From: a virus
Virus record (IMG/VR): IMGVR_UViG_3300025137_005002
Location: 12,479 to 76,478 of that record
DNA length: 64,000 nt
Reading direction: 5' to 3' (one strand)
This document shows, piece by piece, positions 73-41,009 of the stretch (position 1 is the first letter of the stretch; the number at the start of each line of letters is the position of its first letter). Position numbers and translations under genes: made by a program. The notes under the pieces are model-generated. The model ran no database searches, was not told where the DNA came from, and worked only from the letters and a program-made list of their open reading frames with translations.

Positions 73-73
73 T

Positions 74-1426
74 ATGGAACCTGCTGATCCACAAGTAATG
101 AAAAGAAAACTGAATTCAGTTGGCCCTGGATTCTGTTTAGCCAAGTGGACTCAACTTACACTTAACTTACAAAATGGAACTGCTCACAGTTGTCATCACC
201 CACCTGTACACCAAGTGTCTAAAGATGAAATTAAATTAGATCCTAGTTCATTACACAATTCAATATTTAAAAAACAACAACGTAAAGATATGCTCGAAGG
301 TGGCAGACCTAAAGAGTGTGACTACTGTTGGAGAGTTGAAGATGCAGATCCAAATGCATTAAGTGACAGACATTTAAAAAGTGCATTTAGTTGGAGCAAC
401 GAACACTTTGATAAAATTAAAAACAATGATTGGAGTACAAACTTTCAACCTACTTATGTAGAAGTAAGTTTTGGTTATGCTTGTAACTTTAAATGTATGT
501 ATTGTAGTCCTGCTATTAGTAGTGCATGGATGCAAGAAGCAAAGCAACATGGAAGTTTTCCAACCTCTGATAATTACAATGATATCAAATGGTTAGAACG
601 TTCAGGTCGTATGCCGATACCTGAAAGAGAAGAGAATCCATATGTAGATGCATTTTGGAAATGGTGGCCCGACTTATATCCTGCGTTACATACTTTTCGT
701 GTTACAGGCGGTGAACCATTAATGAACAAAAATACTTTCCGTATGATGGATTGGATTATTAATACTGATACACCTAATACAAATTTATTGTTAGGTATTA
801 ATAGTAACTTTTGTGTTGACGACAAACTGTTTAATAAGTTTATTAGTCAAGCACACAAAGTAGTAGATAGTAACAAAGTTCGCAAGTTAGAAGTTTATAC
901 AAGTGCTGAAGCAGTTGGTAATAAAGCAGAGTATATTAGAACTGGATTAGATTACAAGAAGTTTTTTGCTAACGTAGAACGTGTACTAGAAGAATTTAAA
1001 GATAATAATAAATTTATTATTACGTTTATGTGTACTTACAATGCATTGAGTGTAACAACATTTGGTGGCTTCTTAAAAGACCTTATTAAGTTAAGAAAAA
1101 AGTATGGCAGAGATTGTATGTATATTGATATACCATTCTTAAGATATCCCGAAATGATGGACGTTAAAATACTTCCTGGTAGTTTCGAAGAGTATATGAT
1201 TAGTACTGTAGACTACATGGAACAGATGGAAACTGAAGGATTAGTACATAGTAGCGAAACTGCTAAACTTAAACGTATTATAGAATACTGGCGCAGTCAA
1301 CGTACTGTAGACCATAGCAATCATAGAAAAAACTTTAAAGTTTATACTAAAGAACTTGATATTCGCAGAAGCACTAACTTTAAAGAAGTTTTCCCAGAAT
1401 ATGCGGGTTTCTACGATGCAATTTAA
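74..1426 (+). CDS. Radical SAM protein with N-terminal twitch domain (type A)
   Basis: FCLAKW..SCHH..CDYC N-terminal Cys cluster, CNFKCMYC motif, TGGEP; start moved to ATG 74 after upstream stop. Confidence 0.9.
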   Translation: MEPADPQVMKRKLNSVGPGFCLAKWTQLTLNLQNGTAHSCHHPPVHQVSKDEIKLDPSSLHNSIFKKQQRKDMLEGGRPKECDYCWRVEDADPNALSDRHLKSAFSWSNEHFDKIKNNDWSTNFQPTYVEVSFGYACNFKCMYCSPAISSAWMQEAKQHGSFPTSDNYNDIKWLERSGRMPIPEREENPYVDAFWKWWPDLYPALHTFRVTGGEPLMNKNTFRMMDWIINTDTPNTNLLLGINSNFCVDDKLFNKFISQAHKVVDSNKVRKLEVYTSAEAVGNKAEYIRTGLDYKKFFANVERVLEEFKDNNKFIITFMCTYNALSVTTFGGFLKDLIKLRKKYGRDCMYIDIPFLRYPEMMDVKILPGSFEEYMISTVDYMEQMETEGLVHSSETAKLKRIIEYWRSQRTVDHSNHRKNFKVYTKELDIRRSTNFKEVFPEYAGFYDAI

Positions 1427-2621
1427 TACAATTTACATAAATAACATTAGTAAAGAAATTAACCAGCATACTGTTGATGCAATATCAACTAACTGTTATG
1501 ACACTTTAAATGCTGGTACTATGTCCTATGTAGACGAATCACTACATTCCTTGGGCATTAACAATCCGTATTTTATATTTAATGGACCATGTGAATGGTT
1601 CGGATCTTGGTCGGATTCGCGGATAAACTTCGAAGCTCATACCGAAGTGTACTTCTTCCTCTATGAAGTGTTATCAGTATGGCACAATCACTCCAGATAT
1701 AATTGTCCAGATGGTAGTATAAAAAAAGAATGTAAAATCAATGAATTCGAAATGATACAGAACTGGTGCAACAAGCACAACGTTAGTAAGTTCTCTATAT
1801 TTACAAACGAGTATCGTATGTTAGAACAATTACAAAATACAAAATACACCAACTGGGCAATATATCCTTTAGATACATTTAGTCTAGGTTACTGCAAACT
1901 AAATCGTGAACCTAGCAATAATATTCCAGAACAACTTAATTATAAAATAAACTGCTTTACATATCGCTGGGATCAGCACAGACACGCGGCAGTTTCATTT
2001 ATACATAATACACTTCCTAATGATAGTACTATAACACACTGGCATAGAACAGATGATGTATTACTTAAATTTCCGTTAAACACTAGCAAACATTTTGAAG
2101 CATATAGTAAAGGTTGTAAAAGCCTTATGGATTTGTTGCCTATAACAAGAACTGATGCTGAAACTGAATTAGTTAGTATGCAGGATTTTGTTAACCCAAG
2201 TAAAGGAACAATAAATAATATAGCAGGATCAGATAACATAGAAGAAGCATACGAATCATCTTTTGTTACTCTTGCTTGTGAAACTAATTATGAATATCCT
2301 TGGGGACAAATAAGTGAGAAAACTTTAGATCCTATAAAGCAAGGATCTCCAATATTATTATTAGCAGGACCACATAGTTTAGATTTATTAAAACATTGGG
2401 GTCTAAAAACATTTCACGAATTTTGGGACGAAGGCTATGACGAAGAACTAGACCCAATCAAACGAATGGACAAAGTATTTGATATCATTATTGATATTAG
2501 TAATCAATCATATAAAGAACTTACTATAATAAGAAAACATATGAAGCCTATACTTGTCCACAATCGGAACTTAATTAGAACTGGTGCAATTAGAAAACAC
2601 ATAACAAAGGTATTAGCATGA
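1416..2621 (+). CDS. Putative glycosyltransferase (GT-B/GT10-like C-terminal domain)
   Basis: C-terminal ET..ISEKTLDPI..PILLLAG..LK.WG.KTF.EFWDEGYD motif seen in phage GT-like proteins; ATG 1416 overlaps upstream stop. Confidence 0.5.
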   Translation: MQFNTIYINNISKEINQHTVDAISTNCYDTLNAGTMSYVDESLHSLGINNPYFIFNGPCEWFGSWSDSRINFEAHTEVYFFLYEVLSVWHNHSRYNCPDGSIKKECKINEFEMIQNWCNKHNVSKFSIFTNEYRMLEQLQNTKYTNWAIYPLDTFSLGYCKLNREPSNNIPEQLNYKINCFTYRWDQHRHAAVSFIHNTLPNDSTITHWHRTDDVLLKFPLNTSKHFEAYSKGCKSLMDLLPITRTDAETELVSMQDFVNPSKGTINNIAGSDNIEEAYESSFVTLACETNYEYPWGQISEKTLDPIKQGSPILLLAGPHSLDLLKHWGLKTFHEFWDEGYDEELDPIKRMDKVFDIIIDISNQSYKELTIIRKHMKPILVHNRNLIRTGAIRKHITKVLA

Positions 2622-3763
2622 ACATAGGTTGGTTTGGTTTAGGCAAACTTGGAATGATTAGTTCTGAGATGTTAGTTAAGAAGGGGCATACAGTTACAGG
2701 GTATGACAAGGAAGAACGCTTTAGTGGGCTTGTACGAGTGTCTAAGACACCAAAAGAAGCAGTAGTAGGACAGGACTTTGTCTTTGTTGCAGTACAAACT
2801 CCACACCATAAAGACTATGGTGGAGAGAAGCCTATAACACATTTGCCAAACAAAGACTTTGGATTAGACCCTGTCAAAGAATGCTTAAAAGAAATTAACA
2901 AATATGCAACAGAAAATACTATTGTTGTTTTAATCAGTACAATACTTCCTGGAACAACAAGAAGAGAATTCGCAGGCTTATTAGATAAAGCAAGATTAAT
3001 TTATAACCCATACTTAATTGCTATGGGCACAGTTGCTTGGGATATGGTAAATCCAGATATGGTTATCATTGGAGGCAACAAACCAAACGACACTGATGCA
3101 AAAGCATTAATAAAATTTTACAAAACAGTAATGGAGAATGATCCGCATTATAATATTGGTACATGGGAAGAAGCAGAAGCAACAAAAATATTTTATAACA
3201 CATTTATTAGTGCAAGGTTAAGTCTTGTTAATATGATTCAAGACGTTGCCCAAAGTGTTGGGAATATGAATGTTGATGTTGTAACAAATAGTTTAAGTAA
3301 TGCAGGATACCGAATTACCAGTGCCGCTTATATGAAAGCAGGCATGGGCGATGGTGGACCTTGTCACCCTAGAGATAATATTGCCTTAAGACATTTAGCG
3401 GAACGATTAGACCTAGGTTATGACTTGTTCGACGCGATTGCCAAAAGTAGAGAAGTACAAGCCGAACGTATGGCAAAAGAAATATTAAAACATGGAAAGC
3501 AAATTTGCTTTACAAGTGATACATATAAGCCAGGAGTAACATACACTGATGGATCTTATGCACTACTAGTTCAACACTATATTGGAAAGTTGGGTGGAAT
3601 GATTGTTAATGGTTTCGACCATGCAGTTGAAGTTATGGTTATAACTCACCCAACTGACCATAACTTTAATGTTGATAAAGCAACAATAGTTTTTGATCCT
3701 TGGCGTACATACGAAGCCAAAGACCCAAACGTGAAAGTAATACATTATGGAAACACTAGATAA
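2618..3763 (+). CDS. UDP-glucose/GDP-mannose dehydrogenase family protein
   Basis: GxGxxG Rossmann start, AVQTP, STILPGTT, YNP, EATKIFYN, GDGGPCHPRD catalytic Cys, YKP. Confidence 0.9.
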   Translation: MNIGWFGLGKLGMISSEMLVKKGHTVTGYDKEERFSGLVRVSKTPKEAVVGQDFVFVAVQTPHHKDYGGEKPITHLPNKDFGLDPVKECLKEINKYATENTIVVLISTILPGTTRREFAGLLDKARLIYNPYLIAMGTVAWDMVNPDMVIIGGNKPNDTDAKALIKFYKTVMENDPHYNIGTWEEAEATKIFYNTFISARLSLVNMIQDVAQSVGNMNVDVVTNSLSNAGYRITSAAYMKAGMGDGGPCHPRDNIALRHLAERLDLGYDLFDAIAKSREVQAERMAKEILKHGKQICFTSDTYKPGVTYTDGSYALLVQHYIGKLGGMIVNGFDHAVEVMVITHPTDHNFNVDKATIVFDPWRTYEAKDPNVKVIHYGNTR

Positions 3764-4274
3764 ACTTCAACCTCTAGAATATCATACAGTAGAAATTTCT
3801 CCAACTTGGGAAATAGGAGACTACGAAGAGTTTGATTACAAAAGAGTAGAGTATGGAGACTTTAAGCAATTAGCAAAATGGAAGACTGCTGGCTTTACAC
3901 ATGATAACTTTACTGGTATGATGTTTAATGACCAAAAAAGTATTCCACAATGGGCAAAGAATATAGCAACAGTATTAGAATGGAAAGACTGCGGTTTTAC
4001 ATTTTACAAAATGACTACTGGAGATATACTACCGCCACACTCAGACCACTTCAACAAGTATAAAGAACTTTTTGGAATAGAGTCAAGTGATGACGTATTA
4101 CGTGGTTTGGTATTTTTAGAAGATAAAAAGCCAGGACACATTTTTGAAGTAGACCAGTATAGTATGAACTGGCACAAAGGAGGTGCCGTTTTATGGAGAG
4201 GTAGAGTTCCCCATAGTGCAGGCAATATAGGATATGAACCAAGATACACGTTACAAATTACAGGACATTATTAA
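3747..4274 (+). CDS. 2OG-Fe(II) oxygenase-like protein
   Basis: HxD (PPHSD), distal H (PHSAGN) and RYTLQITG strand typical of DSBH oxygenases. Confidence 0.7.
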   Translation: METLDKLQPLEYHTVEISPTWEIGDYEEFDYKRVEYGDFKQLAKWKTAGFTHDNFTGMMFNDQKSIPQWAKNIATVLEWKDCGFTFYKMTTGDILPPHSDHFNKYKELFGIESSDDVLRGLVFLEDKKPGHIFEVDQYSMNWHKGGAVLWRGRVPHSAGNIGYEPRYTLQITGHY

Positions 4275-4935
4275 TCTAGATATTCTAGAGTTATTAAAGG
4301 ACTACGGCGTTGGGTGGAATAATCCTTACGACATCATATACGAGTTTGAAAAAAGACTCGCTGAATACACAGGTGCACCTTATGTAGTTACAACAGATTG
4401 TTGTACACACGCACTTGAACTAGCCCTACGTTGGTATAAAAAGAGACACCCTAGTCATGTACCTTCAATAAAGATACCTGACCAAACATACCTTAGTATT
4501 CCAATGATGCTTGAAAAGGTTGGACTTTCTTTTAGTATTACTGAAGAAGAATGGATTGGTGAGTACCAGTTAGGACCTAATCTTCCTATATGGGATAGTG
4601 CTAGAAGATTACAAAAGAATATGTACGAAGAAGAAACGTTCAAATGCTTGAGTTTTGGACACGGTAAACCATTGACAATTGGCAAAGGAGGTGCTATACT
4701 ATTAGATAGTAGAGAAGCCTATGATTGGCTAATTCGTGCCAGGTACGATGGTAGAGATCTAAAAGTTTCTCCTTGGGATAAAGAACACTACGAAACATTG
4801 GGTTTTCATTACTATATGTCACCAGACCAAGCGGCGATAGGTATAGTTAAGTTAGACCAATACAAAGAAACTGCTCCTAAGAAAGTAGCATATCCAAGTA
4901 TTAAGAAATGTTTCATGATAGGGAATAATAAATGA
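4234..4935 (+). CDS. DegT/DnrJ/EryC1/StrS family PLP aminotransferase (short)
   Basis: FEKRLAEYTGAPYVV..CTHALELAL, WDSA, CLSFGHGKPLTIGKGG (PLP lysine), GFHYYM; start uncertain. Confidence 0.85.
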   Translation: MNQDTRYKLQDIINLDILELLKDYGVGWNNPYDIIYEFEKRLAEYTGAPYVVTTDCCTHALELALRWYKKRHPSHVPSIKIPDQTYLSIPMMLEKVGLSFSITEEEWIGEYQLGPNLPIWDSARRLQKNMYEEETFKCLSFGHGKPLTIGKGGAILLDSREAYDWLIRARYDGRDLKVSPWDKEHYETLGFHYYMSPDQAAIGIVKLDQYKETAPKKVAYPSIKKCFMIGNNK

Positions 4936-5936
4936 TTATAGAATCACATAATGAATGGGATCCATTAAAGAAAGTTATACTAGGAGATGTGCATGGTGCA
5001 AGATTTCCAAAGTACGATGATGTTTTTAATGAAGTTGCTAAACATAGTAAGTGGACAGAAACTGCACAACCAGTTGGACCAATTAACCAAGACATTATTG
5101 ACTTAACAGATCACGAGTTAAGACAGTTTGAAAAAGTATTAGTTGAACTAGGAATTGAAGTTTTACGTCCAAGACAATTAGACTTTCAACAAACTGTACA
5201 TGGATACAGATACTTTGCAGATGGTTTTTATAATTACTGTCCTAGAGATGTTATCCTTGTAATAGGAAACGTTGTAATTGAAACACCAGTATTGTTTCAT
5301 AGTAGGTTTCATGAAACAGAAGCATACCGTGACATTAGACACGAAGCAATGAAGTCAGGTGTTAAATGGATTAGTGCACCAAGACACGCACTACCAGTAC
5401 ATGAAGTATTTGAAGATGGTAAACTTACAGAGAAGACTCCAATCTTTGATGCGGCTAACGTAATGCGTTTTGGTAATGACTTATTATACTTAAAAAGTCA
5501 AACAGGTAATGCCGCAGGTGCCCAATGGTTAAGTACAGTACTTGGACCAGAGTACACAGTTCATATATGGGAAGACGTTTATGCGTATGCTCATATTGAT
5601 AGTACTATCGCGGCACTTAACGAATCAACTCTTTTAATTAACAAACAAAGAGTTAAGCCATCACAGTTACCAAAGTTTTTAAAGAAGCATAAACGAATTT
5701 GGGTTGACAGTGTAGAGGATATGGAGTTTCACAAATATCCATATGCTAGTAATTGGATTGGAATGAATGTGTTAAGCATTGATCCTAAAACAGTTGTCGT
5801 CGATCCTAGACAACCAAAGTTAATTAAGAAATTAGAAAAAGCAAAGTTTGAAGTTATACCTGTACAACTTACACACAGTCGTACATTAGGTGGCGGACAT
5901 CATTGTGCAACATTAGATTTGGAGAGACGAGCATAA
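4932..5936 (+). CDS. Amidinotransferase, StrB1 (inosamine-phosphate amidinotransferase)-like
   Basis: HNEWDPL, YCPRD, FDAANVMRFG, HIDST, WIGMN, LTHSRTLGGGHHCATLD (Asp/His/Cys triad). Confidence 0.92.
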   Translation: MIIESHNEWDPLKKVILGDVHGARFPKYDDVFNEVAKHSKWTETAQPVGPINQDIIDLTDHELRQFEKVLVELGIEVLRPRQLDFQQTVHGYRYFADGFYNYCPRDVILVIGNVVIETPVLFHSRFHETEAYRDIRHEAMKSGVKWISAPRHALPVHEVFEDGKLTEKTPIFDAANVMRFGNDLLYLKSQTGNAAGAQWLSTVLGPEYTVHIWEDVYAYAHIDSTIAALNESTLLINKQRVKPSQLPKFLKKHKRIWVDSVEDMEFHKYPYASNWIGMNVLSIDPKTVVVDPRQPKLIKKLEKAKFEVIPVQLTHSRTLGGGHHCATLDLERRA

Positions 5937-7444
5937 TGTTAACACTAGGAGTTAGTTCAGGATTTCATGATGCCGGATTGGCAGTTGTCGAAGACGGTGA
6001 AGTAGTATTTGCTGGACACAGTGAAAGATACAGTAAACAAAAACACGACAAAGACTTACACCCTGATATTATTAAACAAGCATTGTCATATGGCAAGCCT
6101 GATGTTATTGGGTTTTACGAAACTCCTTGGCTTAAGAAGACTAGAGAGTTATATGCCGGACAAGGTATGTTTGGTGATCGTTCAAGTACATGGACAACTA
6201 AAGGTGCGTTACGTCAACAGTTTGGAGACTTACTTCCTAAAACAAAAATTAAAACATATAGACATCACCAAAGTCATGCGGCGGCAGGATTTCAAACAAG
6301 TCCTTATAATGATGCAACAGTTGTTGTTATCGATGCTATTGGAGAATGGGAAACTATTACTATATGGCACGCCGAATATGATGAGAAGATGAATGCAGTA
6401 TATAAAAAATTGTACAGTCAAAAGTATCCACATAGTATTGGATTATACTATAGTGCTATGACACACAGACTAGGCTTACGTCCACTTGATGAAGAATACA
6501 TTATGATGGGCATGGCTGGTTGGGGTTTACCTACACACTCAAGTAACATACGACAAGCACTAGTACGTGATGATGCTAACACAAAATTTACACAAAACTT
6601 GCACATTGGAGTTGACAATGACTTCTTAAAAGACGTAAACGAATATGAGATAGCCGCAAGTGCTCAAGAAGTTGTTGAAAAACTTATTGATAATGTAATG
6701 GCTAGAGCAAGAGGGTTTAACAAAAGTCGTAATTTAGTTTACATGGGAGGCGTTGCTCTTAACTGTTTATACAATCGTAACTTAGGTAAGTTCTTTGATG
6801 ACGTTTGGATTATGCCTAATCCAGGAGACTGTGGAAGTAGTTTAGGTAGTGCCGCATTAGCATATGGAAGTAGACTTAATTGGGAAACACCATTCTTAGG
6901 AACACCTATTGTTGGCAAGTATCCATCTGAAGAACTAATAGACGAACTACAAAAGAATAAAATTGTAGGAGTAGCAAGTGGTAAAGCAGAGTTTGGTCCA
7001 CGTGCATTAGGTAATAGAAGTTTATTAGCAGACCCTAGAGGTGCAGAAATAAAAGATAAAGTAAATGAGATTAAACGTAGACAAAAGTTTAGACCATTTG
7101 CTCCAATGATATTAGCAGAACACGTTAATGAATATTTTGAAATGCCAGACAAGTTACCAACTAGTCCTTATATGCAAGTGGTAGCAAAGTGTAAAAAGCC
7201 AGAAGAGTTTCCGGCTATTATACACGTCGACGGAACAAGTCGTGTACAAACAGTAGACGAACACTTTCCAAGTGGTGTCAGAGAACTATTAGAGAAATGG
7301 TATGTACTTACAGGCTGTCCTATATTACTTAATACAAGTTTAAATATTAGAGGTGAGCCAATGGTTGATACTAGAGCAGATGCAGATAGATTTGAAAAAG
7401 AATATGGTGTAAAAGTTTGTAGTGATGGTGCAGTAAATGTTTGA
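5936..7444 (+). CDS. Carbamoyltransferase (NodU/CmcH/TobZ family)
   Basis: HDAG, ERYSKQKHD, HHQSHAAAG, DAIGE, GGVALNC, PGDCG, EFGPRALGNRSLLADP, RPFAP, HVDGTSRVQTV, LNTSLN; TAATG coupling. Confidence 0.95.
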   Translation: MLTLGVSSGFHDAGLAVVEDGEVVFAGHSERYSKQKHDKDLHPDIIKQALSYGKPDVIGFYETPWLKKTRELYAGQGMFGDRSSTWTTKGALRQQFGDLLPKTKIKTYRHHQSHAAAGFQTSPYNDATVVVIDAIGEWETITIWHAEYDEKMNAVYKKLYSQKYPHSIGLYYSAMTHRLGLRPLDEEYIMMGMAGWGLPTHSSNIRQALVRDDANTKFTQNLHIGVDNDFLKDVNEYEIAASAQEVVEKLIDNVMARARGFNKSRNLVYMGGVALNCLYNRNLGKFFDDVWIMPNPGDCGSSLGSAALAYGSRLNWETPFLGTPIVGKYPSEELIDELQKNKIVGVASGKAEFGPRALGNRSLLADPRGAEIKDKVNEIKRRQKFRPFAPMILAEHVNEYFEMPDKLPTSPYMQVVAKCKKPEEFPAIIHVDGTSRVQTVDEHFPSGVRELLEKWYVLTGCPILLNTSLNIRGEPMVDTRADADRFEKEYGVKVCSDGAVNV

Positions 7445-8108
7445 TATTATCTTTATGAGTTACGAAGAACCAAATGCAGATAAGCATTGGGACATTGTAA
7501 AGAAAAAGTTTCCATGGAGTAGAAGAAGTCATGGAGTAAAAGGATTACCAAACGCACATCAAGCCTGTGCTAAAATGGCTCGTACAGAAATGTATTATGT
7601 TATAGAAGGCGACAATCTAATTAGTGAAGACTTTGATCCAAGTTTTAAACCAGACAAGTATGGCAAAGATGCAGTGTATGTTTGGCGAGCTCGTAATAGT
7701 GTTAACGATTTAGTTTATGGATACAGTGGTATTAAATTGTTTCCAACGCAAAAAGTATTAGACGTTGATGTGGATAAAGTTGTAGACTTTACTACTGCAA
7801 TTAGTACAAAGTTTGTACCTTATCAAGTTGTAGGTAGTACAGTACATTATGATACTGATCCTTTCAATACTTGGAAGGCGGCATTTAGAGAGTGTACTAA
7901 ACTAACAAGTAAAGTAATACCTGGACAAAAGAACGATGAAGATGATGCTAGACTTCGTACATGGACTACAATAGGCAATGGAGACTTTGGAGACTTTAGT
8001 ATTGCTGGAGCATTGTCTGGTGCAGAGTATGGAAAATACAACAACGACTATAAAAATATTAATGACTGGAAATGGTTAGAGGAAAGATTTGAACAAGAAA
8101 CAAATTAA
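7437..8108 (+). CDS. Putative glycosyltransferase (GT-A-like)
   Basis: DIIFMSYEEPNAD..W, HGVKG..AHQACA, YVIEGDN (DxD-like), YGYSGIKLF, WKAAFRE. Confidence 0.55.
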   Translation: MFDIIFMSYEEPNADKHWDIVKKKFPWSRRSHGVKGLPNAHQACAKMARTEMYYVIEGDNLISEDFDPSFKPDKYGKDAVYVWRARNSVNDLVYGYSGIKLFPTQKVLDVDVDKVVDFTTAISTKFVPYQVVGSTVHYDTDPFNTWKAAFRECTKLTSKVIPGQKNDEDDARLRTWTTIGNGDFGDFSIAGALSGAEYGKYNNDYKNINDWKWLEERFEQETN

Positions 8109-8796
8109 CTTTGTAGACGATAATGATTTATTTGGTCGTATTGGTTTACTTACAGGCGACACATTATTCAACGACTTGCGTAAAGCGAGTGATAACTTAA
8201 ACGCAGACTTTACTGATGCGTTAAGTTGGGGACAATTAAAAAGCAAACGTTGGTTAGTAGACGAGCTAGTTCGTACAGGTGAAGAATTAAGAACTGTATT
8301 TGTCCTAGGAGGATGGTACGGTACGTTAAGTGCTATGTTGTTTAATACTAATATGGTTATTCATTACATAAGAAGTTTTGATATAGACGAAGGATGTCAA
8401 CCTATTGCTGATGCAGTTAATAATACCCATGTACAAAACAACTGGAGATTCAAAGCAGTTATAGAAGATATGCATAATATAAACTATGACGCACACACTT
8501 GGAGTTGTTGGAGTACTAAAAATAGTCGTATGAGTTTTCCAGTTACAGATAGACCCAATACAATTATAAACACTAGTTGCGAACATATAGAAAAGTTTGG
8601 AGAATGGTATTACAATATACCTAAAGGAAAGTTATTAGTATTACAAAGTAACAACTATGATAAGTTACCTGAACACGTTAATTGTGCAACAGGGTTAGAA
8701 CACTTTAGTGAACAGACTCCAATGAGTAAAGTTTTATATCAAGGCGAATTGCCATTAAGCAAGTACACTAGATATATGAGAATAGGAATTAAGTAG
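8089..8796 (+). CDS. Class I SAM-dependent methyltransferase-like protein
   Basis: VFVLGGWYG motif I, SFDID, INTSCEH. Confidence 0.65.
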   Translation: MNKKQINFVDDNDLFGRIGLLTGDTLFNDLRKASDNLNADFTDALSWGQLKSKRWLVDELVRTGEELRTVFVLGGWYGTLSAMLFNTNMVIHYIRSFDIDEGCQPIADAVNNTHVQNNWRFKAVIEDMHNINYDAHTWSCWSTKNSRMSFPVTDRPNTIINTSCEHIEKFGEWYYNIPKGKLLVLQSNNYDKLPEHVNCATGLEHFSEQTPMSKVLYQGELPLSKYTRYMRIGIK

Positions 8797-9080
8797 TGGG
8801 ATTTAATTTTTGGCAATCGATCCCACAACAAGAAAGGACAATCAAAATGAATGAAGTATTCATCCCCTATAGTTTTAGAACACGCAGAGGTGCTAGAATT
8901 ACAAATGAAAGATATACAGAAGGCAAAAGCCTTTGGGAATCAACAAAAGAGTTTTGCAAGAACAATGTAAAGAACAAGTATGTTGTAGACAATACTGTTT
9001 ACGGTAAAGGTGTTCGTGTTGAACTTGAAGATGAAGCAGACGTAGAAGTGATACACGCATGGATCAACAAGAACTCATAG
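8796..9080 (+). CDS. Hypothetical protein
   Basis: ORF coupled to upstream stop; alternative ATG at 8847. Confidence 0.55.
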   Translation: MGFNFWQSIPQQERTIKMNEVFIPYSFRTRRGARITNERYTEGKSLWESTKEFCKNNVKNKYVVDNTVYGKGVRVELEDEADVEVIHAWINKNS

Positions 9081-9292
9081 AAGGATTATCTACGAGAGAA
9101 TTGCAAAAGGAAAGTGCAAAAGCACTAGCCACGATGAGTGCAACCAGTGTTAACATTCATCAGTTTAACAAACAAGCACACCATAATAGTTGGAACTGGT
9201 ACAAAGCAGTAATAAAATGGTATGTAGAACAACACGGCGACTTACCCAGCAAAGTCGGACCAGGTAAAGATGTAAGGCTTATATGGGAGTAA
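9059..9292 (+). CDS. Hypothetical protein
   Basis: ORF within coupled gene run. Confidence 0.6.
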   Translation: MDQQELIEGLSTRELQKESAKALATMSATSVNIHQFNKQAHHNSWNWYKAVIKWYVEQHGDLPSKVGPGKDVRLIWE

Positions 9293-9510: not shown

Positions 9511-9608
9511 TAGAAGATATGTTTTTTATAAGTGACTTTGAAATACTAGTTTATACACTAGTGTTTGGTATAGGATTTTTACTTTACATGATGTGGAATG
9601 AAAGATGA
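9507..9608 (+). CDS. Small membrane peptide (33 aa)
   Basis: ATGA overlaps at both ends; one hydrophobic stretch. Confidence 0.5.
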   Translation: MIEDMFFISDFEILVYTLVFGIGFLLYMMWNER

Positions 9609-10360: not shown

Positions 10361-10698
10361 AATTAGATGTATTAGATATAGGCGGAGAGGTAGTTAAAGA
10401 CAATGACACCTACTTACTTAAAGACAATAAGACTTTAAAAAATCTTGTTGTTAGTAGTACAGATTTAAAACCCAATAGAAGTACTACGGGCCATGCACAC
10501 GTTGGACAAGAAGAAGTCTATTACTTTGTAAGTGGCTGGGGAACAATGGAACTTATTAGCACAAACGGAAAAGTAACAAGTCACGATGTTAAACCTGGTA
10601 CTGTAATTTTAATTGAAGATGGATTCTTTCATAGAGTTCATGCAGGTAGTGACGGTTGTTATTTTGTTTGTGTGTTTGATGGAAAGAGAAATCATTAG
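10357..10698 (+). CDS. Cupin domain protein
   Basis: GHAH..QEEVYYF..G.G and FHRV cupin motifs. Confidence 0.85.
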   Translation: MKLDVLDIGGEVVKDNDTYLLKDNKTLKNLVVSSTDLKPNRSTTGHAHVGQEEVYYFVSGWGTMELISTNGKVTSHDVKPGTVILIEDGFFHRVHAGSDGCYFVCVFDGKRNH

Positions 10699-17067: not shown

Positions 17068-17079
17068 GTAAGTATTAAT

Positions 17080-17407: not shown

Positions 17408-17447
17408 ACTCTAGCAAAAACCCAAAAAAAATCTGTAGCAAAAATTT

Positions 17448-24258: not shown

Positions 24259-24265
24259 TACAAGA

Positions 24266-32253: not shown

Positions 32254-33572
32254 GTAAAACATACTGTCCTATTCCTTGGAACTTCCAAGCAGTAAGAAAC
32301 AATGGTGATGTTCGTATTTGCTGTCAAGCAAATGTAACAAAGAACCAGGGTGTGGTTAGACATAAAGATGGCACACCTTATAATGCAGGAAGAGATAGTT
32401 TAGTTAGAGCCCGTAATGCCGACCTTATGAAAATTGTTCGTAAGAATATGTTAGCAGGTATATGGAGTGACGAGTGTAAGAGGTGTAAGCAAGAGGAAGA
32501 AGTTGGACTTAATAGTAGACGTCAATATGAATTACAAACTTGGAGTAAACTTGATATAAAAGAAGCACGAGCACTTACTAAAGTCGATGGAACTATTGAT
32601 ACAGAACGTGCTCCAATAAATTACTACGATTTAAGATTTGGTAACTTATGCAATTTGCAGTGTCGTATGTGTGGACCTACTGATAGTCATAGTTGGTATG
32701 AACAATGGACTGACTATCATAAAGAAGAAGGCTTTCAAGATACACATGGATACGTTAAGTTAAATCGTAATAAAAAAGGTAGATTAGAAACTAAAGATTA
32801 TAGTTGGCACGGATCTACAAGTTTTTGGAATAATATTGAAAAGAATTTAGATAAAATTCAGCACGTTTATATGGCAGGCGGTGAACCTATGATGATTGAA
32901 CGTCATTACGAGTTCCTAGAGAAGTGTGTTAAGAAAGATGTTGCTAAAAACATATTAATTGAATACAATACTAACATGACAAACTTACCTGACAAAGTAT
33001 TAGAGTACTGGAAGCATTTTAAAGAAGTTAGAGTTGGTGCAAGTATAGATGGTATGGGAGAAGTATTAGAGTATCAACGTTATCCAATTAAGTGGGAACA
33101 GGCAAAGAAGAATTTAGATAAACTAGATAAGTTTGCACAAGAAAACAGTAACATAATGGCATGGATAGCCTACACTGTTACAGTGAATAATGTTTGGCAC
33201 TTGCCTGAGTTTATGTTATGGAAAGTTAAATCAAGTGGCTGGAAGAAGATTAACAGTACAATGAAAAGACCAGTAATAACTCATCATGTTGCACATGGTC
33301 CAAAGAGAATGAACTTAAAGATATTGCCTCCGCATTTAAAAGAAACTTTAGAAGCAGTTTATAATAATTGGAAAGCCATATTTGCTAGTGAGTTTACTGA
33401 ATTACAAACAGAAAAGGCTTGCAAAATCCTTGATAGTGTGTTACAATTTACTAAATCAGAAGATTATGATCAATTAGACGAATACATCAAATTCACAAAA
33501 TATTTGGATAGAACTAGGAAACAAGATATCACAAAAGTTGTTCCTAGATACAAGGATTTGTTTAATGATTAA
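32250..33572 (+). CDS. Radical SAM protein with N-terminal twitch domain (type A)
   Basis: YCPIPW..ICC..CKRC; CNLQCRMC; AGGEP. Confidence 0.9.
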   Translation: MSKTYCPIPWNFQAVRNNGDVRICCQANVTKNQGVVRHKDGTPYNAGRDSLVRARNADLMKIVRKNMLAGIWSDECKRCKQEEEVGLNSRRQYELQTWSKLDIKEARALTKVDGTIDTERAPINYYDLRFGNLCNLQCRMCGPTDSHSWYEQWTDYHKEEGFQDTHGYVKLNRNKKGRLETKDYSWHGSTSFWNNIEKNLDKIQHVYMAGGEPMMIERHYEFLEKCVKKDVAKNILIEYNTNMTNLPDKVLEYWKHFKEVRVGASIDGMGEVLEYQRYPIKWEQAKKNLDKLDKFAQENSNIMAWIAYTVTVNNVWHLPEFMLWKVKSSGWKKINSTMKRPVITHHVAHGPKRMNLKILPPHLKETLEAVYNNWKAIFASEFTELQTEKACKILDSVLQFTKSEDYDQLDEYIKFTKYLDRTRKQDITKVVPRYKDLFND

Positions 33573-34940: not shown

Positions 34941-36050
34941 ATGACTGATTTAAAAACTAGTGAATATGATTTTAGTGCTATACCCTACAATGATTTAGTT
35001 AGTGTAGGACAACGTACTTTAATACATAGGGATATATTTACAGTAAGTTGGCTACTAGGAAGATTCTGTAATTATAAATGTAGTTATTGTTGGCCCTATG
35101 CTCGTAGTGACAGAAAAGATCATAGACCTTTAGAACTTTGTTTAAAAACAATAGATGAGATTAAAAGACAGGCTAGAGAAAATAACTTTAACAGTTTTCA
35201 CTTTAGTTTAAGTGGAGGAGAACCAACTTTCCACCCAGGCTATTTAGATATAATGAAACATTTATCTGATGATGCACAAAATACGAATTATACAAGTGTA
35301 CATATGACTAGCAACTGTAGTCGAAACATGAAATGGTTTCAAACATATGTTGATTACGCAAGTAAGTTTCACAGGGCTAGTATCACTTGTAGTTTACACG
35401 TTGAACACGTTAACAATAAAGAAAAAATGCAACAATTGGCAGACAAGTTAATACTATGTCAAGAACATGATGTACAAGTTACAATTAATATGGTTATGGT
35501 ACCACAGTTATTTGATCAGTATTATGAAAATGCATTGTTCTTTCATAACCAAAACATTAACGTAACACTAAAGCCTATGAGTGATCCTACGGCGAGTAGA
35601 GTTGTAGATGGATATACAGAAGAAATGAAGCAAAAACTGTATAATGATATGCCACAACGTGCTTATACAGAACAAAAAAATAAATATGTAATAAGACCGA
35701 AGCCGAATTGGAAACCCTTACCGGAAATGAAATTAGACAACGGCACTGTACCACAACATTTTCAAGTTGAGTTTGAAGATAGCAAAGGCAAGAAATGGTA
35801 CATGGATCAAGCAGAACGTTTTAATGCGTTTAACTTTAACAAATTCAAAGGCTGGAATTGTAACGCAGGATACCAAGGAGTTATCATAAGAGAACCAGAC
35901 GGTTCGATTAAGCGAAGTTATAGTTGCAGTGATGTTCCATTAGGGAATATTGAAACAGGATTTAAATTATTTGATAAGCCGATGCCTTGTATATCACAAA
36001 GTTGTGTATCAAGTGCAGACAGTAAAATACCGAAAAGAAAGATTATATGA
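34941..36050 (+). CDS. Radical SAM protein (third type) with C-terminal twitch-like domain
   Basis: CNYKCSYC, SGGEP, MTSN, WNCNAG..SC..PC..SC. Confidence 0.88.
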   Translation: MTDLKTSEYDFSAIPYNDLVSVGQRTLIHRDIFTVSWLLGRFCNYKCSYCWPYARSDRKDHRPLELCLKTIDEIKRQARENNFNSFHFSLSGGEPTFHPGYLDIMKHLSDDAQNTNYTSVHMTSNCSRNMKWFQTYVDYASKFHRASITCSLHVEHVNNKEKMQQLADKLILCQEHDVQVTINMVMVPQLFDQYYENALFFHNQNINVTLKPMSDPTASRVVDGYTEEMKQKLYNDMPQRAYTEQKNKYVIRPKPNWKPLPEMKLDNGTVPQHFQVEFEDSKGKKWYMDQAERFNAFNFNKFKGWNCNAGYQGVIIREPDGSIKRSYSCSDVPLGNIETGFKLFDKPMPCISQSCVSSADSKIPKRKII

Positions 36051-36515: not shown

Positions 36516-36897
36516 TAATTGGGGCGAAGACTTACAACTACTAGAAGGGCAAGACAGGTTACAATACCTAGTTGACCTAGCTCGTAATGCCACATCATTA
36601 CCTCCAGAAATGAGAACTGACGAACGACTTGTTCCAGGTTGTATCAGTAAAATTTGGGTAGATGTGGGTTTAGTAGAAAACAAAGTTAAAGTATATTACG
36701 ATAGTGATGCTTTAATACCAAAAGGTATAGCAACAATAGTTTGTGATATATTTACTGACAGTACTAAAGACGAAGCATTGAATCTTGCTACGGAAGATTT
36801 AGAACCACTAGGATTTATGCAATTAGTAACACCACAGAGACGTAACGGACTCTTTAACCTAATAGGTGTAATAAAAGGGAAAGTAGAAAGGTTGTAA
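36493..36897 (+). CDS. sufE: SufE sulfur-acceptor protein
   Basis: DRLQYLVDLA, VPGCISKIW, DSDALIPKG, TPQRRNGL. Confidence 0.92.
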   Translation: MSIKKKINNWGEDLQLLEGQDRLQYLVDLARNATSLPPEMRTDERLVPGCISKIWVDVGLVENKVKVYYDSDALIPKGIATIVCDIFTDSTKDEALNLATEDLEPLGFMQLVTPQRRNGLFNLIGVIKGKVERL

Positions 36898-37550
36898 TGG
36901 AATATAAGGGCATCAGTGAATCCGAATTTCATTTTGTTATCCCGGAAGTAAAAACTCCGTTAAAAGAATTAACAGAATTATATAACAAAGTAAAAGACTA
37001 TTCCTATACATGGAACGATTACAAGAAGAAATATGATCCAAATAAACATCATCAGCCTAGAGGAGATGGTGGATTAGGAGCAGTATATTCTCCAGACTTA
37101 GAAGGTATAGAAATAAAAGACTACCCTGTAGTAAAGGAGTTCTTAAGAAACTTTATTTTTTATCAACCAGATGAAAAAGATATTAATAACGAAAGTGGAT
37201 TAGAAGGAAATGATGTTACTTTTATGACATACGAGCCTGGCTTTGTATTTAAGAAACATACTGATAGAGAAATGCAATACAATCTTATGATGCCTATACT
37301 CCCATTAACTAATAATGAACCTATACATTATTGGGTAGGAGAAGATAAAGACAGGGATATTACGGATAAGAAAGTAGCAACTGTTTACTATAATTTTGAT
37401 CACCCAACAGTTTGTAATGGTAAGGCTTTACATAGTGTAGACGAAATTAAAGAACATAGAGTTATATTTAGAATTAAACTTGCTAAAGAATCATTTGAAT
37501 CAATTAGAGAAAGGTATAAACGAGGTACATTTTTAAATGTTAATGACTAA
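36897..37550 (+). CDS. 2OG-Fe(II) oxygenase-like protein
   Basis: KHTD (HxD), LHSV, RVIFRI. Confidence 0.55.
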   Translation: MEYKGISESEFHFVIPEVKTPLKELTELYNKVKDYSYTWNDYKKKYDPNKHHQPRGDGGLGAVYSPDLEGIEIKDYPVVKEFLRNFIFYQPDEKDINNESGLEGNDVTFMTYEPGFVFKKHTDREMQYNLMMPILPLTNNEPIHYWVGEDKDRDITDKKVATVYYNFDHPTVCNGKALHSVDEIKEHRVIFRIKLAKESFESIRERYKRGTFLNVND

Positions 37551-38371: not shown

Positions 38372-39097
38372 ATGCAATACGAAGAACTGCAAAAGATTAT
38401 TAGTAATGGTATCACTATTCAATCAAGTGGTACAACAGGAACACCTAAACGAATAGAACAAACTCCTGCTAAACTAAAAGCGGCTGATGAAGTTGCAATA
38501 GATAGTCAACAACTTACTAGTAACTCTAAAATTTATACAATATGTAAAACAACTCATGCTGGAGGTTTGTTAGCACAAACTTTACCTGGCATTCGTATTG
38601 GAGCAGAAGTTATTGTAGAAGACTTTAATGCATACAGGTTTGTTAGAGAAGTTACAAAGTATACGCATACGCATATTACACCTGACCATGGCAAAGCAAT
38701 AATAAAAACTAAAGGCTGGAGAGATTTAGATTTAACAGGATTATGGGTAACTTGTGGTAGTGACAGAGTTCCGTGGTATTTAATAAGTGCCTTTGTTAGT
38801 AAAGGTGCAACGTTTATGACTAATTGGGGAATGACAGAGATAGGACCTTGTGCTATCAATACAGTTTTTGATAGTATGGACAAGGTAGAAGAATATAGAA
38901 GTAAAATTATACACGGTATGAATGGCGACGAATCTTTACCAATATTAGGAGATAGATTCTACTGTGATTACCAAATATCTGAATGGAATGAACTAATTGT
39001 TAAAGGAGATATATGCGTATATAATGATTGGTTTAAAACTGGAGATAAAGTAGTAACTAAACAAGACATATTATATTATGATGGGAGAATAAAATGA
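38372..39097 (+). CDS. Minimal AMP-binding (ANL adenylate-forming) enzyme
   Basis: SSGTTGTPK P-loop, WGMTE, ELIVKG, WFKTGD, GR; only 241 aa. Confidence 0.85.
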   Translation: MQYEELQKIISNGITIQSSGTTGTPKRIEQTPAKLKAADEVAIDSQQLTSNSKIYTICKTTHAGGLLAQTLPGIRIGAEVIVEDFNAYRFVREVTKYTHTHITPDHGKAIIKTKGWRDLDLTGLWVTCGSDRVPWYLISAFVSKGATFMTNWGMTEIGPCAINTVFDSMDKVEEYRSKIIHGMNGDESLPILGDRFYCDYQISEWNELIVKGDICVYNDWFKTGDKVVTKQDILYYDGRIK

Positions 39098-39911: not shown

Positions 39912-40623
39912 ATGTATCTAGTTTTTGATTTTTTACTGTATAAGAATATGAGTCTTCATTCTTACCTTCGAGTATATCTCTATTAGCATTAATAGGAACC
40001 CCTTCGATCATACGAATATACTTTAGTATCATTTGGTCTTCGGTGTCAACACCCCAAACGTTTTTCCAATATCCTTCATTACATATATTCATAGTTAATT
40101 TGTTTTCATGAATGAACATTAGATTATGTCTATTCTCATGAGCCATTTCTTTTATCATTGTTTCGCGATTAGTATATGCTTCTTTGTATCTTGGGTAAGG
40201 TATATCAAATCCACCTGCACCAAACCAACCTTCTTCACAGTTTTCATTTGATCTATAAACAATTACATACTTACTGTTTGGAAACATCTTATAAATTTTA
40301 GGTAAGTCAATACTAAATTGATGACACTTAATAATTTTATATCCGTTATTCTGTGTTATCCATGCACTATCTATTTCTTTAAATATTTCTTCTTTAGAAA
40401 GTTTATCAAGTTTATTAAAGTTATCTCCCCAAGGAAACCCTGGACCAAAATATGATCCTCTATGTGGTATTATATCTGGATCATTAAAGTGTGCATACTG
40501 TCTATCATCAGCATAGTCTCCAGTATCAAATAGATACTTTTTAGATTGTGCCATTACATGAGCAACTGCACTCCATTTACTTCCAGGGGCACCTGTGAAA
40601 AATACTAACTTACTTTCGTCCAT
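39886..40623 (-). CDS. P-loop sulfotransferase/kinase-like protein
   Basis: VFFTGAPGSKWS, IIKCH, VIVYR; paralog of 41011-41880. Confidence 0.6.
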   Translation of the reverse strand: MDESKLVFFTGAPGSKWSAVAHVMAQSKKYLFDTGDYADDRQYAHFNDPDIIPHRGSYFGPGFPWGDNFNKLDKLSKEEIFKEIDSAWITQNNGYKIIKCHQFSIDLPKIYKMFPNSKYVIVYRSNENCEEGWFGAGGFDIPYPRYKEAYTNRETMIKEMAHENRHNLMFIHENKLTMNICNEGYWKNVWGVDTEDQMILKYIRMIEGVPINANRDILEGKNEDSYSYTVKNQKLDTFIATLGFE

Positions 40624-41009
40624 TACCTGTGCATTCCGTTTTTATTTTGATAATTTAATATTGCTGACTTAATGGCATCTTCTGCCAATACACTACAGTG
40701 AATCTTTACTGGAGGTAGTGCAAGTTCTTCTACAATGTCCATATTTTTAACTGCCTTTGCTTCTCCTAGTGTCATACCTTTAACCATTTCAGTTACAAGA
40801 CTGCTACTAGCAATCGCACTTCCACAACCGTATGTTTTAAAACAAGCATCTTCAATGACATCATCTATTACTTTTATTTGCAATCGCATAACATCTCCAC
40901 AAGCAGGAGCACCTACCATTCCAGTTCCTACACTAGAATCGTCCGTATCCATCTTGCCTACATTACGAGGATTTTCGTAATGGTCTAAAACCTTTTTACT
41001 ATAAGCCAT
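40623..41009 (-). CDS. iscU: Fe-S cluster scaffold IscU
   Basis: MAYSKKVLDHYENPRNVG, GAPACGDVM, FKTYGCGSAIASSS, LPPVKIHCSVLAEDAI. Confidence 0.97.
   Translation of the reverse strand: MAYSKKVLDHYENPRNVGKMDTDDSSVGTGMVGAPACGDVMRLQIKVIDDVIEDACFKTYGCGSAIASSSLVTEMVKGMTLGEAKAVKNMDIVEELALPPVKIHCSVLAEDAIKSAILNYQNKNGMHR

Follow-up and report, generated by a model that had tools for sequence, protein, structure and literature searches.

Radical S-adenosylmethionine (rSAM) enzymes perform chemistry that few other enzymes can do. Here we describe a gene island in a 64,000-bp stretch of DNA (the window), which comprises bases 12479-76478 of the 76,478-bp IMG/VR virus record IMGVR_UViG_3300025137_005002, rated 21% complete. 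In this island, 17 rSAM genes are mixed with genes for sugar-type enzymes and iron-sulfur (Fe-S) helper proteins. The DNA belongs to a marine jumbo myovirus of ~350 kb that is uncultured and has a capsid of T4 type; among cultured phages, the PA5oct-like ones are nearest to it. Rather than one fixed 40-kb pathway, the island is a conserved core of ~6 genes with a variable panel of modules, and parts of it also reside in Bdellovibrionota chromosomes. Positions refer to the window, and open reading frames (ORFs) are named by their first nucleotide; coordinates prefixed L001 follow the numbering of the record, and the features cited with them lie upstream of the window.

An initial annotation, made from the letters alone, had taken the island for phage DNA. 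This origin is now established by comparison with the IMG/VR contig G001 (306,714 bp, 87% complete), the closest relative of the record, and by presence in viromes. The 76-kb record itself has no capsid or terminase gene. It is colinear with G001 over its whole length and on both strands, at 42-98% amino-acid identity; 52 plus-strand genes match at 58-98%, and 32 of 35 minus-strand ORFs are matched. G001 carries a T4 gp23-type major capsid gene (E 2.3e-99) and a terminase gene (Terminase_6C, E 4e-9), and a 1606-aa protein resembling a PA5oct virion protein is encoded directly upstream of its cluster. The exonuclease/RNaseH of the window is 49.5% identical to its counterpart in PA5oct-group jumbo phages. 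Near-identical DNA occurs in at least 11 marine studies, virus-fraction metagenomes among them; in one virome run (X13) the 20-30 kb region was poorly covered, and such missing coverage proves nothing.

The radical SAM array

The count of 17 co-oriented rSAM genes in the initial annotation was borne out. In a motif scan of all plus-strand ORFs, CxxxCxxC was found in exactly 17 between 23 and 36050 (starts at 23, 11471, 12556, 13710, 15127, 18777, 20446, 22022, 24191, 25317, 27331, 28505, 29655, 31159, 32250, 33538, and 34941). Sixteen match Pfam PF04055 (Radical_SAM) at E<0.01; relative to its gathering score of 29.5 bits, 11 ORFs lie above and five below (20.4-28.3 bits). The remaining one, 23-1426, has no Pfam match, yet scores 322.7 bits on the NCBIfam model NF033640 (N_Twi_rSAM). 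Four of the six ORFs that do not exceed the gathering score pass NF033640, and for the other two, 20446 and 31159, the rSAM call comes from sub-threshold matches, CxxxCxxC, and homology to other members of their type.

Ten ORFs pass the 170-bit cut-off of NF033640, with scores of 237.6-423 bits over model positions ~1-4 to 391-398; the other seven, with 25-50 bits or no match, are non-members. As the initial annotation had stated, this is a catalogued family without an assigned function. Our searches found no paper naming N_Twi_rSAM, and nothing relevant on jumbo phages together with radical SAM. Pfam SPASM matches at residues 11-98 of 13710 and 13-92 of 22022 place the twitch before the rSAM core. 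In an alignment of the ten paralogs and their orthologs, four cysteines (C11, C29, C94, and C97) upstream of C150 are invariant, as are C150/C154/C157 (the CxxxCxxC motif) and G225/G226/E227 (GGE, a motif examined in the ten N_Twi paralogs). The N_Twi ORFs are thus predicted to place a Cys-rich, putatively cluster-binding twitch domain ahead of the rSAM core. The seven non-members have the core at the N-terminus; six of them, here called type B, have a Cys-rich or SPASM-like C-terminal tail, and 34941 is of a third type.

The N_Twi genes start with 23..1426 (CxxxCxxC at residue 154; true start probably near 74), whose orthogroup is common to the related 303-kb phage contig G002 and a Bdellovibrionales chromosome in our tree. 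They continue with the core member 13710..15122 (423 bits), 15127..16260 (237.6 bits; part of a window-specific expansion), 18777..20132 (263.8 bits; PF04055, 54.2 bits), 22022..23329 (360.9 bits), 25317..26591 (242.9 bits), three consecutive genes at 27331..31166 (273.4, 283.5, and 335.2 bits for 27331, 28505, and 29655), and 32250..33572 (361.5 bits), whose orthogroup is shared with Bdellovibrionales. Among type-B genes, 11471..12556 (PF04055, 35.9 bits) is a conserved core member with the core first and a Cys-rich C-terminus, has homologs at 42-50% in Bdellovibrionota loci, and is followed by 12556..13713 (32.5 bits; CxxxCxxC at residue 21). The 531-aa protein of 20446..22041 has an N-terminal core with CxxxCxxC at residue 60, scores 25.8 bits, below the cut-off, and has a 92% ortholog in G001. 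At 24191..25336 (36.3 bits) lies the best match in the window to the rSAMs of Campylobacter phage CP220 (E 1e-17 to 1e-19). The protein of 31159..32253, with a C-terminal SPASM-like region, matches TIGR04317 (E 9e-13) and, below the cut-offs, PF04055 (22.4 bits) and SPASM (19.3 bits); its G001 ortholog is 95% identical. The last type-B gene is in two parts, an rSAM ORF at 33538-34284 (+; 41.3 bits) and a SPASM-like part on a separate ORF at 34268-34618 (+; PF13186, 19 bits). G001 has the gene divided in the same way, at 82-85% identity, so a sequencing error is not the cause; a programmed split or frameshift may be. The third-type rSAM, 34941..36050 (PF04055, 52.3 bits; weak viperin/MoaA-like NCBIfam matches), is a conserved core member, with 75-92% identity in phages, 51-66% in most loci of Bdellovibrionota and other metagenome-assembled genomes (MAGs) that carry homologs, and as much as 79% in contigs labelled as MAG but probably of phage origin. 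All of these genes are on the plus strand.

A model of 13710 (pLDDT 85.5) was compared with the PDB using Foldseek and returned generic rSAM neighbours at TM ~0.3, namely SkfB, SuiB, anSME, CteB-type enzymes, viperin, and BlsE. A PDB sequence search with 13710 found nothing, and searches with 34941 and 11471 gave weak matches. Since the structural neighbours are generic and the sequence search is empty, the substrate of these rSAMs cannot be read from structure.

Sugar-type enzymes, Fe-S helpers, and transcription units

The genes described here between the first rSAM gene and 11471 are on the plus strand. Pfam or PDB matches bear out the initial annotation for the amidinotransferase and the carbamoyltransferase, for two dehydrogenases, a DegT-like enzyme, a cupin, and a cytidylyltransferase, and for NifU, SufE, IscU, and a fragment of an AMP-binding protein. 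Neither PHROG nor NCBIfam had a match for 1356, 7437, 8089, 9059, 23284, 36897, or 37537. A 421-aa protein at 1356..2621, also without a Pfam match (G001 ortholog 65%, omega 0.22), is followed by an NDP-sugar 6-dehydrogenase of the UDP-Glc/GDP-Man dehydrogenase family at 2618..3763 (PF03721, E 1e-16; PF00984, E 3e-15), a homolog of which (48%) lies beside core rSAMs in the Bdellovibrio MAG locus L114. A second, short member of the dehydrogenase family is encoded at 9605..10360 (PF00984, E 2e-24; PF03721, E 1e-8), next to a cupin at 10357..10698 (PF00190 and PF07883, E 2e-6; 36% homolog in Synechococcus phage S-SCSM2R) and a cytidylyltransferase-like nucleotidyltransferase at 10859..11275 (PF01467, E 1e-15).

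Two 2-oxoglutarate (2OG) oxygenases had been proposed. That at 3747..4274 matches the Asp/Arg hydroxylase family above its cut-off (PF05118, E 3e-5, 24.4 bits), and its homolog adjoins the amidinotransferase gene in S-SCSM2R; the 217-aa protein at 36897..37550 (+) is a possible 2OG oxygenase by its HxD...H motif, and has no match in Pfam and no ortholog in G001. A short DegT/StrS-type PLP aminotransferase-like protein of 233 aa at 4234..4935 (PF01041, E 1e-18; omega 0.10) is 38% identical to a short AHBA_syn-like gene product of S-SCSM2R. The second PLP enzyme, 23284..24258 (+), was recovered through the ESM Atlas, where its nearest clusters (0.99) have PF00155 on 24-67% of members; Pfam and the PDB sequence search gave no match. 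Its homologs (28-44%) stand beside rSAMs in 12 MAG loci, and it is a frequent rSAM neighbour in phages and cells.

The amidinotransferase at 4932..5936 matches PDB 1bwd, the inosamine-phosphate amidinotransferase StrB1, over its full length (residues 2-332, 279 bits, E 4.7e-82). It retains the Asp/His/Cys triad (CPRD, H(I/V)DST, GGG.HCATLD) and is far closer to StrB1 than to AGAT, SxtG, or HsvA (<=176 bits). By sequence it is a StrB1-like enzyme of the pentein fold, with inosamine-phosphate as a candidate acceptor. A NodU/TobZ-type carbamoyltransferase follows at 5903..7444 (PF16861, E 4e-53; PF02543, E 1e-36), and in several MAG loci its homologs (31-47%) adjoin the core.

The core protein at 7437..8108 is a paralog of L001:889-1848. 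It has no sequence-family match (Pfam included), and a profile search of the PDB was empty. In its AlphaFold model (pLDDT 93) all top Foldseek matches are GT-A transferases at E ~1e-4 and TM ~0.4 (SunS, WrtF, PcManGT, K4CP, TarS, and PBCV-1 A64R), and D59 in the acidic motif DGDN is invariant. The glycosyltransferase-like call in the initial annotation is therefore upheld by fold, and 7437 is modelled as a GT-A-fold protein and putative transferase. In relatives (L018, L021, L044, L047, and L069), homologs of 7437 are fused into multi-domain proteins of 540-1350 aa. Next in the core is 8089..8796, methyltransferase-like by a glycine-rich motif (VLGGWYG) and without a Pfam or PDB match. Like this methyltransferase and the second 2OG oxygenase, two other calls of the initial annotation have a weak basis, a possible YgfZ/GcvT-fold protein at 16254..16820 (+; PF01571, E 1e-4, 22 bits against a cut-off of 25.6; no ortholog found in G001) and a 249-aa protein at 26585..27334 (+), nitroreductase-like at best (phrog_18935, E 0.0027 only). 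A small conserved ORF of 77 aa lies at 9059..9292 (omega 0.06; no cysteine), with copies at 70-83% in 33 viral loci and at 63-73% in three MAG loci. Towards the end of the island, 38372..39097 (+) encodes a short AMP-binding (adenylate-forming) domain protein that covers profile positions 170-335 only (PF00501, E 2.6e-11).

The Fe-S helper genes are a NifU-domain carrier at 36117-36515 (+; PF01106, E 2.5e-21), SufE at 36493-36897 (+; PF02657, E 1e-26), and the IscU scaffold at 40623..41054 (-; PF01592, E 2e-50), the last of which is also present in G001 and G002. Family searches covered five phage records (G000, G001, G002, G003, and G005), which are incomplete, two of them being 86-87% complete. 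A cysteine desulfurase (PF00266) was found in none of G000, G001, and G002 and in G003 only. The claim that the phage has its own Fe-S supply holds for scaffold and carrier proteins, and the full ISC/SUF combination of desulfurase, scaffold, and carrier was not found in this phage. Because neither the record nor the 87%-complete G001 has a PF00266 gene, the phage probably supplies scaffold, carrier, and sulfur-acceptor proteins and relies on a host desulfurase.

The initial annotation had placed all of this in a single co-oriented run that extends upstream of the window. The extension is real: co-oriented plus-strand genes continue through the remaining 12.4 kb of the record, and include three DUF6071 genes, an NTP-transferase, a nucleosidase-like gene, a RuBisCO-like protein, a phosphoribosyltransferase, and a phosphomannomutase-type HAD enzyme. 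The RuBisCO-like protein (L001:10031-11164; PF00016, E 1.4e-35; 90% conserved in G001) lies between the PNP_UDP_1 nucleosidase-like gene and the phosphoribosyltransferase. These three may serve 5'-deoxyadenosine/MTA salvage for the rSAM load, a reading weakened by the lack of a G001 ortholog for the nucleosidase-like gene and the phosphoribosyltransferase. The DUF6071 paralogs are at L001:4186-5055, 6580-7314, and 8177-8881, and one has a weak GDSL-lipase-like match.

The run itself is mostly co-oriented, within a block of at least 52 kb and at least two transcription units. It is interrupted at ~17.1-18.8 kb (17067..18790) by small minus-strand ORFs and divergent sigma-70 promoters, and iscU is also on the minus strand. 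Promoter matches of 12/12 occur at 18758-18785 (+) and 18723-18695 (-), and of 11/12 at 18428 and 17876 (-). The plus-strand 12/12 promoter faces the second half of the array (the unit from ~18.8 kb), and its consensus sequence suggests early-type transcription of the downstream unit by host polymerase. A single copy of the T4 late-promoter motif TATAAATA is present in the window, where 11.9 would be expected; the lineage may use another late motif. RNA-library contigs from two studies span all of 10001-30000, with DNA carry-over possible.

On the minus strand, an eighteenth rSAM, QueE (phrog_2076, E 4e-53), is adjacent to QueD (phrog_2389, E 1e-42) within 55080-56467. The pair suggests synthesis of 7-deazaguanine; a Pfam search of the five phage records for TGT/DpdA gave no match. 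Two further minus-strand features were seen. A 1008-aa protein at 60164-63190 combines a subtilase domain (PF00082, E 5e-33) with a weak N-terminal match of tape-measure type and may be a virion-associated protease. At 45576-48399, a DUF2201 metallopeptidase/VWA-like protein adjoins a MoxR/AAA_5-type ATPase, a pair that we take to resemble the CobT/CobS-like genes common in marine T4-like phages.

Conservation in jumbo phages and counterparts in Bdellovibrionota

The genes of the cluster are intact and under purifying selection. Relaxed selection was looked for and not seen, omega (dN/dS) against G001 being 0.02-0.29 in all 52 compared genes. The island also recurs in related jumbo phages, as the initial annotation required of a genuine phage system: besides the colinear G001, 60 IMG/VR loci contain an ortholog of 13710 (58-93% identity), and several of these loci lie on contigs of 170-307 kb. 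Five such contigs have 10-12 N_Twi genes over the cut-off and 15-17 rSAM-like matches each. Genes within 10 kb on either side of the 13710 ortholog were counted in the 60 viral loci at ortholog-level identity. The type-B gene 11471 was present in 60/60, 7437 and L001:889-1848 in 57/60 each, 8089 in 55/60, the 77-aa ORF in 33/60, and 34941 in 32/60. The block from dehydrogenase to carbamoyltransferase and most other rSAMs are common to the nearest relatives only. The proposal of one large pathway is not supported by this comparison: because few genes (~6) recur across the clade, the rest vary, and the 303-kb G002 splits its N_Twi genes between two clusters >100 kb apart, the island is better described as a core with a panel of modules.

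A quick maximum-likelihood tree placed the ten N_Twi genes of the window in at least seven positions. In each of the lineages of 13710, 32250, and 23, phage and Bdellovibrionota sequences group together with strong support; the 32250 clade includes G002 and two Bdellovibrionota chromosomes (support 99). Origin of the array by local duplication alone is rejected, as only four genes (15127, 25317, 27331, and 28505) form a window-specific clade (support 99). By its sequences, the array consists mostly of old subfamilies common to these phages and Bdellovibrionota.

The cellular side of this distribution was surveyed in one genome per prokaryote species. Orthologs of 13710 at 53-62% identity occur in MAGs labelled Bdellovibrionales, Pseudobdellovibrionaceae, Bacteriovoracaceae, and Halobacteriovoraceae, and include genes on closed chromosomes of 1.9-2.5 Mb and on a 3.0-Mb contig. 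Homologs of 11471, 34941, 7437, 8089, and L001:889-1848 occur in the same loci, in some cases joined by homologs of 32250, 23284, and 5903; in the Bdellovibrio MAG locus L114, homologs of the dehydrogenase, the DegT-like protein, and the amidinotransferase lie beside those of the core rSAMs. Gene order in these cellular loci is shuffled, and their GC content ranges from 27% to 58%. In five Bdellovibrionota genomes the N_Twi genes number 7-16 per genome and in part form tandem arrays of eight; none of the five has a gp23 gene. No N_Twi gene was found in fourteen control genomes. In an even sample of the phylum, made up mostly of uncultured members, 31/151 genomes have at least one N_Twi gene over the cut-off. 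The initial annotation had overlooked this shared gene set, and we found no paper tying such rSAM arrays to Bdellovibrio or Bdellovibrionota. What is new here is that the core genes and several N_Twi orthogroups are also present in Bdellovibrionota chromosomes, at 7-16 copies per genome. The shared set is a lead on the host of the phage or on gene exchange with Bdellovibrionota.

Two observations accompany this survey. The 1.9-Mb Bdellovibrionales chromosome G008 has approximately eight N_Twi genes each at 792852-803016 and 1068646-1092743. Three loci in MAGs labelled Gammaproteobacteria, Acidimicrobiaceae, and Chloroflexota (L073, L097, and L098, respectively) have a GC content of 27-36% and 9-11 rSAM-like genes each. 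In the tree, the 13710 orthologs of these loci branch within the phage clade; jumbo-phage DNA binned into bacterial MAGs is their probable source.

Precedents and possible products of the island

Two published precedents had also escaped the initial annotation, and the island is a much-expanded variant of a phenomenon in print since 2010. The T4-like Campylobacter phages CP220 and CPt10 have 11-12 rSAM genes in clusters, each with a "glycine amidinotransferase" (Timms et al. 2010, PMC2853527). In our comparison, CP220 gp080/083/084 are homologous to the type-B rSAMs of the window, including 11471 (25-28% identity, E 1e-12 to 1e-19), the pentein-fold gp086 is 26% identical to the window amidinotransferase, and two nucleotide-diphospho-sugar transferases lie beside the rSAM and amidinotransferase genes. 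The GT-A fold is found in both, and sequence homology between the transferases was not detected. The window thus fits a CP220-type module of type-B rSAMs, a pentein amidinotransferase, and nucleotide-sugar-transferase-fold genes in a T4-type phage. It differs in that CP220 lacks a close N_Twi homolog (tblastn with 13710 found no Campylobacter phage), has fewer rSAMs and no NDP-sugar dehydrogenase/carbamoyltransferase block, belongs to another host and habitat, and has a genome of half the size. The second precedent, the 183-kb marine T4-like genome TARA_ERS488813_N000010, has 12 rSAM genes with Fe-S assembly and carrier genes, and its authors proposed that such a phage sustains Fe-S enzymes of its own (Nishimura et al. 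2017, PMC5332604). Compared by description, the likeness is that of many rSAMs with Fe-S assembly genes in a marine T4-like phage; the genome is 183 kb rather than ~350 kb, and only a gene count is given, without families, cluster anatomy, or a cellular counterpart. In Synechococcus phage S-SCSM2R, DegT-like, rSAM, and amidinotransferase genes were called "antibiotic synthesis genes", with an unclear role (2025, PMC12801897). Its DegT/AHBA_syn-like protein (38%), 2OG oxygenase (26%), amidinotransferase (37%), and cupin (36%) resemble those of the window and lie next to one rSAM and five glycosyltransferases; unlike the window, that block contains only one rSAM and lacks both an N_Twi array and Fe-S genes. 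As for NF033640 itself, ten proteins of the window exceed its cut-off and keep the four N-terminal cysteines, CxxxCxxC, and GGE, whereas a ten-member phage array beside sugar enzymes is absent from the family description, as far as we checked it.

Aminoglycoside biosynthesis offers a further comparison. Its logic combines the StrB1 amidinotransferase, the StsC/BtrS aminotransferases, and the twitch rSAM dehydrogenase BtrN. The window would likewise encode secondary-alcohol oxidation, transamination, and amidination, with auxiliary-cluster rSAMs. Unlike the streptidine and 2-deoxystreptamine pathways it showed no carbocycle-forming synthase in the five phage records, and it is phage-encoded and has GT-A transferases. 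The pairing of auxiliary-cluster rSAM and aminotransferase recalls BtrN/BtrS of butirosin biosynthesis, by analogy and with no claim of membership; the N_Twi auxiliary domain is N-terminal, closeness to BtrN was not detected, and BtrN is absent among the Foldseek matches listed.

With moderate confidence, we read the island as modular rSAM tailoring of a glycoconjugate that is derived from a nucleotide sugar and decorated with amino, guanidino, and carbamoyl groups. The initial annotation had left the product as a sugar or a cyclitol. A sugar-type product is favoured on account of the phosphomannomutase, the nucleotidyltransferases, the NDP-sugar dehydrogenases, the PLP enzymes, the StrB1-like amidinotransferase, the carbamoyltransferase, and the GT-A fold. 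It is favoured over a cyclitol because no cyclitol synthase, neither PF01761 (DHQ synthase) nor PF01658 (inositol-1-phosphate synthase), was found in the five phage records, although these are incomplete and the host could supply inositol; the same searches were positive in 11 and 6, respectively, of 14 control genomes.

We infer a substrate, an order of steps, and an acceptor as follows. A sugar phosphate would be activated by the upstream phosphomannomutase-type HAD enzyme and NTP-transferase and by the cytidylyltransferase in the window, and then oxidised by the two NDP-sugar dehydrogenases, possibly also by BtrN-like rSAM dehydrogenases. Transamination by the DegT-like and class I/II-like PLP enzymes would yield an amine that the StrB1-like enzyme could convert to a guanidino group. 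The NodU/TobZ-type enzyme would carbamoylate, the 2OG oxygenase hydroxylate, and the GT-A-fold transferases pass the product to an acceptor. The 17 rSAMs may supply oxygen-independent C-H chemistry (oxidation, epimerisation, deoxygenation, or C-C/C-methyl steps), with the conserved trio 11471, 13710, and 34941 doing common steps and the variable panel giving lineage-specific decoration. IscU, the NifU-domain carrier, and SufE would feed clusters to the rSAMs using a host cysteine desulfurase, and the upstream nucleosidase, RuBisCO-like protein, and phosphoribosyltransferase may clear 5'-deoxyadenosine. As the core is found in Bdellovibrionota chromosomes, a cell-envelope or secreted glycoconjugate is a likelier acceptor than DNA. 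A bolder proposal, which we put forward as speculative and improbable, is a "radical glyco-editing" toolkit shared by phages and Bdellovibrionota. The rSAM trio and GT-A transferases would make a base structure, a rapidly changing N_Twi panel would diversify the regio- and stereochemistry of the sugar ring, and the resulting hypervariable guanidino/amino glycan on the infected cell or virion would control recognition (e.g., superinfection exclusion, predator avoidance, or receptor masking).

Several findings weigh against the glycoconjugate reading. Among 128 neighbours of N_Twi genes in Bdellovibrionota chromosomes, sugar genes are not enriched (GT2, 2/128); a Pfam scan of these neighbours, which are ordinary cell genes, gave 151 families, none on more than two proteins, and hence no hint of function. 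Tandem, nearly identical N_Twi copies, such as some in the second G008 array (the only one of the two in the tree; branch lengths 0.03-0.07), suggest recent tandem duplication and resemble a diversifying family more than the steps of a pathway, and the two distant clusters of G002 also speak against a single assembly line. The DegT-like protein lacks its C-terminal third. The best structural matches of 7437 include S-glycosyltransferases of glycocin peptides, and the generic neighbours of the N_Twi model include peptide maturases. Most SPASM/twitch enzymes act on peptides, and we know of no N_Twi_rSAM member with a known substrate.

The last of these points lead to an alternative that we consider unlikely, in which the rSAMs cross-link, epimerise, or mark a ribosomal peptide or a phage or host (virion, lytic) protein, and the GT-A protein glycosylates it as in glycocins. 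The nearest solved folds (SkfB, SuiB, anSME, and CteB-type maturases), NCBIfam side-matches that are mostly to maturases of RiPPs (ribosomally made peptides that are modified post-translationally), and the SunS/ThuS S-glycosyltransferases at the top of the 7437 matches all fit it, as do the small, strongly conserved 77-aa ORF in the core and the many paralogs, which are typical of families with one substrate each. However, the fold matches are weak (TM ~0.3) and generic. A precursor-like ORF rich in Cys, Gly, or Ser was not seen, cysteine is absent from the 77-aa ORF, and a Pfam scan of the window detected neither a leader peptidase or transporter nor a RiPP recognition element family. Moreover, the co-located dehydrogenases, nucleotidyltransferases, amidinotransferase, and carbamoyltransferase act on small sugar-type molecules. 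Such enzymes could instead build a free aminoglycoside- or aminocyclitol-like metabolite, a guanidinylated and carbamoylated pseudo-sugar that is released or acts as an inhibitor inside the host and is not attached to a polymer. We regard this as quite unlikely, since no carbocycle-forming enzyme (DHQ-synthase/2-deoxy-scyllo-inosose synthase-type or inositol-1-phosphate synthase) is present in the five phage records, no kinase or exporter was identified, and GT-A proteins, often 500-1350-aa multi-domain fusions in relatives, fit the assembly of a polymer or glycoconjugate better. In its favour are the closeness of the amidinotransferase to StrB1 of streptomycin biosynthesis, the DegT/StrS-type and second PLP enzymes, the TobZ/NodU-type carbamoyltransferase, and the oxidation of an aminocyclitol by the twitch rSAM BtrN in butirosin biosynthesis; the label given to the homologous cyanophage genes points the same way (PMC12801897).

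Hypermodification of DNA or nucleotides, in which a bulky sugar or amino group on a phage base would guard against host nucleases as do glucosyl-hmC, arabinosyl-hmC, and thymidine hypermodifications, is very unlikely in our judgement. T4-type phages commonly glycosylate their DNA, and the window carries QueD, QueE, and ThyX; rSAM and PLP enzymes are reported in thymidine hypermodification pathways (PMC5889632). The core nevertheless sits among ordinary cell genes in Bdellovibrionota chromosomes, in genomes without the T4 capsid gene; a TGT/DpdA-type transglycosylase is missing from the five phage records, and QueD/E are 19 kb away on the opposite strand. It is extremely improbable that the contig is not phage at all and instead comes from a Bdellovibrionota-like cell genome or a mis-called island with an ordinary cellular pathway. 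The 53-62% orthologs with the same core in Bdellovibrionota chromosomes would suit a cellular source, as would the small, 21% complete record with neither capsid nor terminase gene; against it stand the colinearity of the whole record with the 307-kb G001 and its gp23 and terminase genes, the PA5oct-like virion protein directly upstream in G001, the DNA in virus-fraction metagenomes, and the absence of gp23 from the five Bdellovibrionota genomes.

The interest of the island lies in the chemistry of the N-terminal-twitch family and in the link between phages and predatory bacteria, rather than in the existence of rSAM-rich phages. The N_Twi family, of which one phage has ten paralogs and a 1.9-Mb bacterium as many as 16, amounts to a large untapped store of reactions, and the Fe-S helper genes illustrate how a virus may sustain a heavy load of oxygen-sensitive enzymes. 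Gene sharing with Bdellovibrionota provides a lead on the host, or on gene exchange, for a cosmopolitan clade of uncultured phages, and a cultured strain, if one carries the core, might make the chemistry accessible in culture. Were a decorated glycan the product, the island would rank with the most elaborate virus-encoded systems of glycan tailoring yet suggested for a bacteriophage, and would alter the view of the surface biology of abundant ocean jumbo phages. Should the toolkit proposal be true, the N_Twi enzymes would represent a new class of carbohydrate-modifying radical enzymes.

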